Below the pieces are notes generated by a model, which made no database searches, had not been told where the DNA came from, and was given only the letters and a program-made list of their open reading frames with translations. A stretch of DNA of 64,000 nucleotides from Escherichia coli. GTDB taxonomy: Bacteria > Pseudomonadota > Gammaproteobacteria > Enterobacterales > Enterobacteriaceae. The stretch lies in assembly GCF_017348835.2 (NCBI RefSeq), contig NZ_CP071375.1; one strand, written 5' to 3'. This document shows positions 22,756-23,006 of the stretch, in pieces. How positions within the stretch are numbered: the first letter of the stretch is position 1; each line of letters starts with the position of its first letter. The position numbers were made by a program, and so were the translations under genes.

Positions 22756-23006
22756 CTAGTGATAACCACGCGCGGTCATAAAATCCGTAATCGCTTTTTC
22801 TGCATCAATCAGCACCTGTTCCAGTGGCTGATTGGCATCGATATCAACCAGTTGTGCACCACCAAAGGTTAACTGTGGCGTTATGGCAATCTTCCTCGCC
22901 AGCGATTCCCGTTTATGGTCGGGTTTACGCGCGCAGGCAACTTCAAGGTCAACATTGAGTTTGATGACCAGATCAGGCTTATGGCTCGCCATCCAGTGAA
23001 ACGCTT
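22756..23006 (-). pseudogene. yghT: 3'-terminal remnant of a P-loop ATP-binding protein gene, truncated at its 5' end by the adjacent IS element
   Basis: Open frame (78 aa from first Met; frame stays open up to the IS boundary) that stops 48 bp after pitB; position matches yghT of K-12; upstream part of the gene is replaced by the IS inverted repeat at 23007. Confidence 0.55.

Follow-up and report, generated by a model that had tools for sequence, protein, structure and literature searches.

Our analysis indicates, with a probability that we put at roughly 85%, that a short yghT-derived segment lying between pitB and an insertion sequence (IS) in Escherichia coli is the dead 3' stub of that gene, left behind by an IS-associated deletion in the common ancestor of strains PE164 and F2_81 and followed by a further IS-involving rearrangement in the PE164 lineage. 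The segment was found in a stretch of 64,000 nucleotides, here called the window. The only full-length, 100% match to a 3-kb query over the remnant was on the reverse strand of the PE164 chromosome (NZ_CP114128.1; host record: pig, diarrhoea and blood, Nanjing). For comparison we used 5426 complete genomes, among them F2_81 (NZ_CP043542.1; pig, Australia), together with the intact yghT loci of strain C11, which encodes a YghT of 230 amino acids, and of K-12 (b2986).

First, the gene is cut at a precisely definable point. The remnant occupies positions 22756-23006 on the minus strand and consists of the stop codon (22756-22758) and codons 148-230, that is, the final 83 of 230 codons. Translated on the minus strand, 22759-23007 agrees with residues 148-230 of C11 YghT at 83 of 83 positions (E = 6e-62), and its alignment to K-12 YghT, annotated as a 'putative ATP-binding protein', gives 82 identical residues out of 83, in good agreement with the original prediction that only about 80 C-terminal codons are left. 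DNA identity between the window, F2_81 and the intact C11 locus extends from the pitB stop codon to 23006/23007 and then ends abruptly; beyond this point C11 runs on into yghT, whereas the window and F2_81 run into the end of the IS. The left inverted repeat of the element starts at 23007, so that the remnant does end at an IS inverted repeat, as had been proposed, and the T at 23007 itself can be assigned either to yghT or to the IS.

The other side of the remnant is undisturbed. Its left-hand neighbour pitB (21208-22707, plus strand) is intact with 499 codons, and the remnant is convergent with it across the same 48-nt spacer, and in the same orientation, as in K-12 and C11. This spacer retains an intact terminator-like hairpin (22717-22745) and differs from the C11 locus by one substitution, at window position 22733. 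The locus thus resembles K-12 yghT in its convergence with pitB, in the terminator spacer and in the sequence of residues 148-230, and differs from it in that the Walker A region, the promoter and the neighbouring genes yghS and yghR are gone.

Given that codons 1-147 are absent and that homology stops at 23006/23007, we regard the segment as a pseudogene remnant, which is also how RefSeq annotates it (LZG51_RS03220, window 22756-23007, 'thymidylate kinase; incomplete; missing N-terminus'). The full 230-codon frame with its N-terminal P-loop is no longer there: the Walker A motif GSDGSGKST corresponds to residues 12-20 of K-12 YghT and falls within the missing part, and the family similarities of K-12 YghT are confined to its N-terminal 185 residues. 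A Pfam and NCBIfam search of the remnant returned no family match, and no promoter-like site was detected in 22600-23200. Since it lacks a P-loop, a promoter-like site and a domain match, the stub is most likely non-functional. The remnant does contain an ATG-initiated frame of 78 codons (22756-22992, minus strand) which starts at the internal Met153 of YghT, and the intactness and 100% conservation of this frame could be taken as signs of a real small gene, or of a C-terminal fragment that is functional and independently expressed. We consider this extremely improbable and conclude that the frame is not an independent gene. Its DNA is present in 4730 genomes, all matches examined are the 3' end of an annotated yghT (230 codons where checked), and the sequence stands alone in only two genomes; the P-loop and promoter evidence given above points the same way. 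The perfect conservation is explained by the recency of the event, because the flanking DNA differs at only 2 positions in 12.6 kb.

With regard to the function of the intact protein, a literature search found no functional study of yghT. RefSeq applies the product name 'dTMP kinase' to both YghT and YghS. However, K-12 YghT (28132-28824 in the extracted K-12 stretch) scores only 26 bits with the NCBIfam TMK models, which have cut-offs of 193 and 83, and 21 with the Pfam TMK model against a cut-off of 27, and the remnant scores nothing. Full-length YghT therefore falls far below the thresholds for membership of the thymidylate kinase family, which leaves the RefSeq product name weakly founded; 'dTMP kinase' looks over-specific for an uncharacterised P-loop protein.

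Second, the element at the break is an IS3-family IS of the IS629/IS1203 type (23007-24316, plus strand, 1310 bp). It carries 25-nt inverted repeats at 23007-23031 (IRL) and 24292-24316 (IRR) which are 88% complementary, and two overlapping frames, orfA (23061-23387, 108 aa), which matches the N-terminal part of the IS3-family transposase model, and orfB (23387-24274, 295 aa), which matches the DDE transposase model of the family with 311.8 bits (cut-off 160); a programmed frameshift is part of the RefSeq annotation. The element is 95.95% identical, without gaps, to an O157:H7 copy labelled 'IS1203 family' by RefSeq, which we take to be the IS629 of the O157 literature. Like the O157 elements it is 1310 bp long, with 25-nt inverted repeats that start with TGAAC and with an orfA and orfB joined by an annotated programmed frameshift, although the isoform found here is about 4% diverged from the O157 copy and is not flanked by a target-site duplication. 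The flanking trinucleotides are CTT and GTA in PE164 (...GCTT, GTAT...) and CTT and CAG in F2_81, and the two PE164 flanks therefore cannot stem from one simple insertion. The missing duplication does not speak against the identity of the element, as it is expected if a deletion or rearrangement has replaced one of the flanks. IS629 is documented as the most abundant IS in E. coli O157, where it is reported to inactivate genes and to give rise to IS-adjacent deletions which, in the presence of the IS-excision enhancer, can exceed 40 kb (PMC9943667). The locus described here is similar to such documented IS629 deletions in that an intact IS end abuts a truncated gene whose flank has been lost.

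Third, the junction between the stub and the IS is probably older than the arrangement seen in the window. Among the 5426 complete genomes, a contiguous pitB-yghT stub-IS arrangement occurs only in PE164 and F2_81. The left-hand flank of the IS (12,607 nt) and the island and nfeF side (13,084 nt) each show 2 differences between these two genomes, compared with 109 in 4,199 nt between PE164 and C11. PE164 and F2_81 are thus near-clonal, which argues that the junction was inherited by both and not made twice. The IS copy itself has behaved differently from its surroundings: it differs between the two strains at 14 of 1310 sites, a rate about 70 times that of the flanks, and the differences lie in three blocks common to other copies, which points to sequence exchange among IS copies. 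This mosaicism is consistent with recombination between IS copies having swapped the right-hand flank. An attempt to locate a single crossover from the variant sites of five IS copies was unsuccessful, as the copies are mosaic and no one crossover explains them.

In F2_81 the gene order is collinear with that of K-12 and reads nfeF, ileX island, ileX, mug, rpoD ... hyb, pitB, yghT stub, IS, a 33-kb island, pheV, yqgA, speC, and the right end of the IS abuts a fragment of a yfjJ-like gene of the pheV island. The position of this right end within the pheV island implies that the original event removed everything from the island interior to yghT codon 147, and the F2_81 arrangement indicates that this was an IS-associated deletion in the common ancestor of the two strains. 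As an observation in its own right, the F2_81 pheV island encodes a Qat anti-phage system (qatC, and qatD with a KAP NTPase domain; 13314-18017 in the extracted F2_81 stretch), as well as contact-dependent-inhibition/haemagglutinin genes and fragments of T6SS genes.

In PE164, the same IS is joined on its right to a different island. The sequence from 24317 to 28418 is the integrase end of an island which many E. coli, C7 and F2_81 among them, carry between ileX and nfeF, and homology to the uninterrupted island of these two strains begins exactly at 24317. The remnant of the island holds a hypothetical gene of 534 codons (24446-26050, plus strand), a hypothetical gene of about 200 codons (26133-26759, minus strand) and a P4-type tyrosine integrase gene (26859-28175, minus strand) whose product has Arm-DNA-bind_3 and Phage_integrase domains. 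It ends with the displaced 3' 47 nt of the tRNA-Ile gene ileX (28372-28418), and the first core gene past the island is nfeF (yqjH; 28472-29236, minus strand), which is followed by nfeR, aer, ygjG, ygjH and ebgR. On the K-12 map, yqjH is about 80 kb away from yghT and has the opposite orientation relative to it. The two hypothetical genes have no match in Pfam or PADLOC and are conserved at about 100% at the ileX/nfeF site in many E. coli genomes; their position beside a P4-type integrase resembles the cargo slots of integrative islands. The 47-nt ileX copy between the island integrase and nfeF has a K-12-type T arm, and the T arm of the complete ileX, which is now some 80 kb distant, is of the island type, with 4 differences that leave the stem paired; ARAGORN reports no tRNA in the window.

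The junction with the ileX island is accompanied by an inversion. Relative to both K-12 and F2_81, window positions 1-24316 and the DNA beyond are inverted in PE164, as part of a block of about 83 kb (approximately 670.2-753.3 kb in the record) that runs from the yghT stub through pitB, hyb, rpsU-dnaG-rpoD, mug and ileX to DUF4942-DUF957-DUF5983, the last of these truncated. The two flanks of this block, ebg to nfeF and pheV-yqgA-speC, are oriented as in F2_81. Because the IS abuts the ileX-island remnant and the block next to it is inverted, the IS is also an inversion breakpoint. Both the ileX-island remnant across the IS and the position of the IS at the breakpoint of an ~83-kb inversion go beyond what the original prediction contained.

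Fourth, we asked what has become of the missing part of yghT and of its neighbours, which the original prediction held to be either displaced or lost. Absence was assessed by megablast place counts and 500-bp samples. By these counts the yghT 5' part (codons 1-147), yghS and yghR have no match in the chromosomes of PE164 or F2_81. A query that combined the island remnant with these sequences gave 1 place each in PE164 and F2_81 and 2 in other bearers of the island, such as C7. For genes further along, a query made of a PE164-specific anchor and 500-nt K-12 samples of eight genes (yghD, pppA, yghJ/sslE, glcA, glcB, glcD, glcC/yghO and yghQ) returned 1 place in PE164, 2 in F2_81 (the island and the stub) and 5 in controls, so by place counts all eight sampled genes are absent from both strains. 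When pitB was part of this query PE164 showed 2 places, and with the gss 3' end and pitB taken out it showed 1, which means that the additional place stemmed from that portion of the anchor, perhaps through a pitB paralogue, and not from the tested genes. Moreover, a BLAST search with the corresponding 24.1 kb of K-12, which extend from pheV to yghT codon 147, gave no match in pPE164, the only plasmid of PE164, nor in 27 kb and 50 kb of PE164 chromosome around the two rearrangement ends. The accession that follows that of pPE164 is from a different strain. In total about 24 kb is lost, comprising yghT codons 1-147, yghS, yghR, yghQ, yghO, the glc operon, yghJ/sslE, pppA and yghG-yghD. Of all complete genomes, 4731 contain the 3' 299 nt of yghT and 4729 the 5' 441 nt, and the surplus of two fits PE164 and F2_81 as the only genomes with the 3' part alone.

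These results bear directly on the possibility that yghT was split by a simple IS insertion, after which two IS copies mediated an inversion that moved the 5' half, yghS and yghR to the opposite end of the inverted block. Such a scheme would sit well with the ~83-kb inversion in PE164, which has this IS at one end, and with an IS that lacks a target duplication. Nevertheless, it has very little to recommend it, since the other end of the inversion contains no yghT 5', yghS or yghR sequence, the genes are unmatched in both chromosomes, and F2_81 carries the identical truncation with no inversion. In addition, it had been suggested that the missing 5' portion be sought next to another copy of the IS: none was found in PE164, and a chimeric query in which the final 400 nt of the IS were combined with the 5' part of yghT and with yghS was covered to at least 80% in 0 of 5426 genomes. 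As judged from the assembled sequences, the missing 5' part and its neighbours are lost and not displaced.

It is also conceivable that assembly produced a false join through a 1.3-kb multicopy IS. A query comprising the pitB 3' end, the stub, the IS and the island matches 32 places in the PE164 chromosome, presumably for the most part IS copies, and the PE164-specific junction between the IS and the ileX island is known from one assembly only. However, two complete assemblies made independently, one from China and one from Australia, show an identical junction between the stub and the left end of the IS, and the 24 kb is absent from both; a false join would also have left the displaced partners elsewhere in the assembly, and none is there. 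We therefore regard an artefact as improbable.

Taken together, an IS-associated deletion followed by a second rearrangement would account for the locus as follows. In a first step, an IS629/IS1203-type element would have come to lie with its IRL against yghT codon 148, and the roughly 24 kb to the pheV region would have been deleted once, in the common ancestor of PE164 and F2_81. In a second step, confined to the PE164 lineage, further recombination or transposition with other IS copies would have joined the right end of the IS to the ileX island, 130 bp upstream of its 534-codon gene, with inversion of the ~83 kb between the yghT stub and ileX. We infer this order of events as well as the molecular route, which may have been homologous recombination between IS copies, intramolecular transposition or IEE-promoted IS-adjacent deletion.

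The second step is unlikely to have been simple. Neither an IS junction with the other side of the ileX island nor a junction between the IS and the pheV island was found in PE164 as a reciprocal product. The two ends of the inverted block carry unlike elements, the IS629-like copy and an IS1, and the DNA from ileX to pheV in PE164 has nothing in common with the F2_81 islands of this region, the pheV islands being different. More than one step is thus required to explain the PE164 rearrangement. Consistently, a one-step model in which an IS in the ileX island recombined with the copy at yghT predicted a product in which the IS links the other side of the ileX island to the pheV island, and these junctions are absent. 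A second IS629-like copy near pheV in PE164 (767,657-768,966) was also considered as the partner but rejected, since it is a direct and not an inverted copy, its flanks are unrelated and it lacks a duplication. In comparison with the IS-bounded inversions of E. coli and Shigella, the PE164 locus shares the inverted order relative to the reference, an IS at the breakpoint and the mosaic IS copies, but differs in its unlike end elements and in the missing reciprocal junction, which argue against a clean one-step recombination between two inverted copies.

Two features of PE164 were noted alongside. The stretch between ileX and pheV contains, at 754,554-763,490, an open reading frame of 2978 codons with a TcdA/TcdB-type glycosyltransferase domain, which has no counterpart in the regions of F2_81 examined. 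The 41.7-kb plasmid pPE164 carries espT, an EspF-repeat fragment, an autotransporter gene, many frameshifted genes and two more IS629-like copies, a content which suggests an attaching-and-effacing-type pathogen background with a heavy IS load.

We also considered that the stub may not be mere debris: its 3' end, together with the shared hairpin, could be needed to terminate or stabilise the pitB transcript, or the 78-codon frame could be expressed as a small protein by read-out from the IS. Separately, the IS-pivoted inversion of 83 kb, by which rpsU-dnaG-rpoD and the hyb operon change orientation, could be stable and under selection in this pig-pathogen clone. We regard these ideas as long shots. 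In our view the locus is a case of ordinary IS-driven genome decay, an event of a known kind with a stub already flagged in the RefSeq annotation.

Finally, the finding has little importance beyond strain bookkeeping and opens no new question. It does show, however, that an IS-associated event has cost the pig clone represented by PE164 and F2_81 some 24 kb of chromosomal DNA that is widely conserved, with the glycolate-utilisation operon and the SslE (YghJ) locus among the losses. This loss is useful for typing the clone and for predicting its phenotype, which would include no growth on glycolate and no SslE, and it adds to the cases in which E. coli genomes have been reshaped by IS629-type elements.
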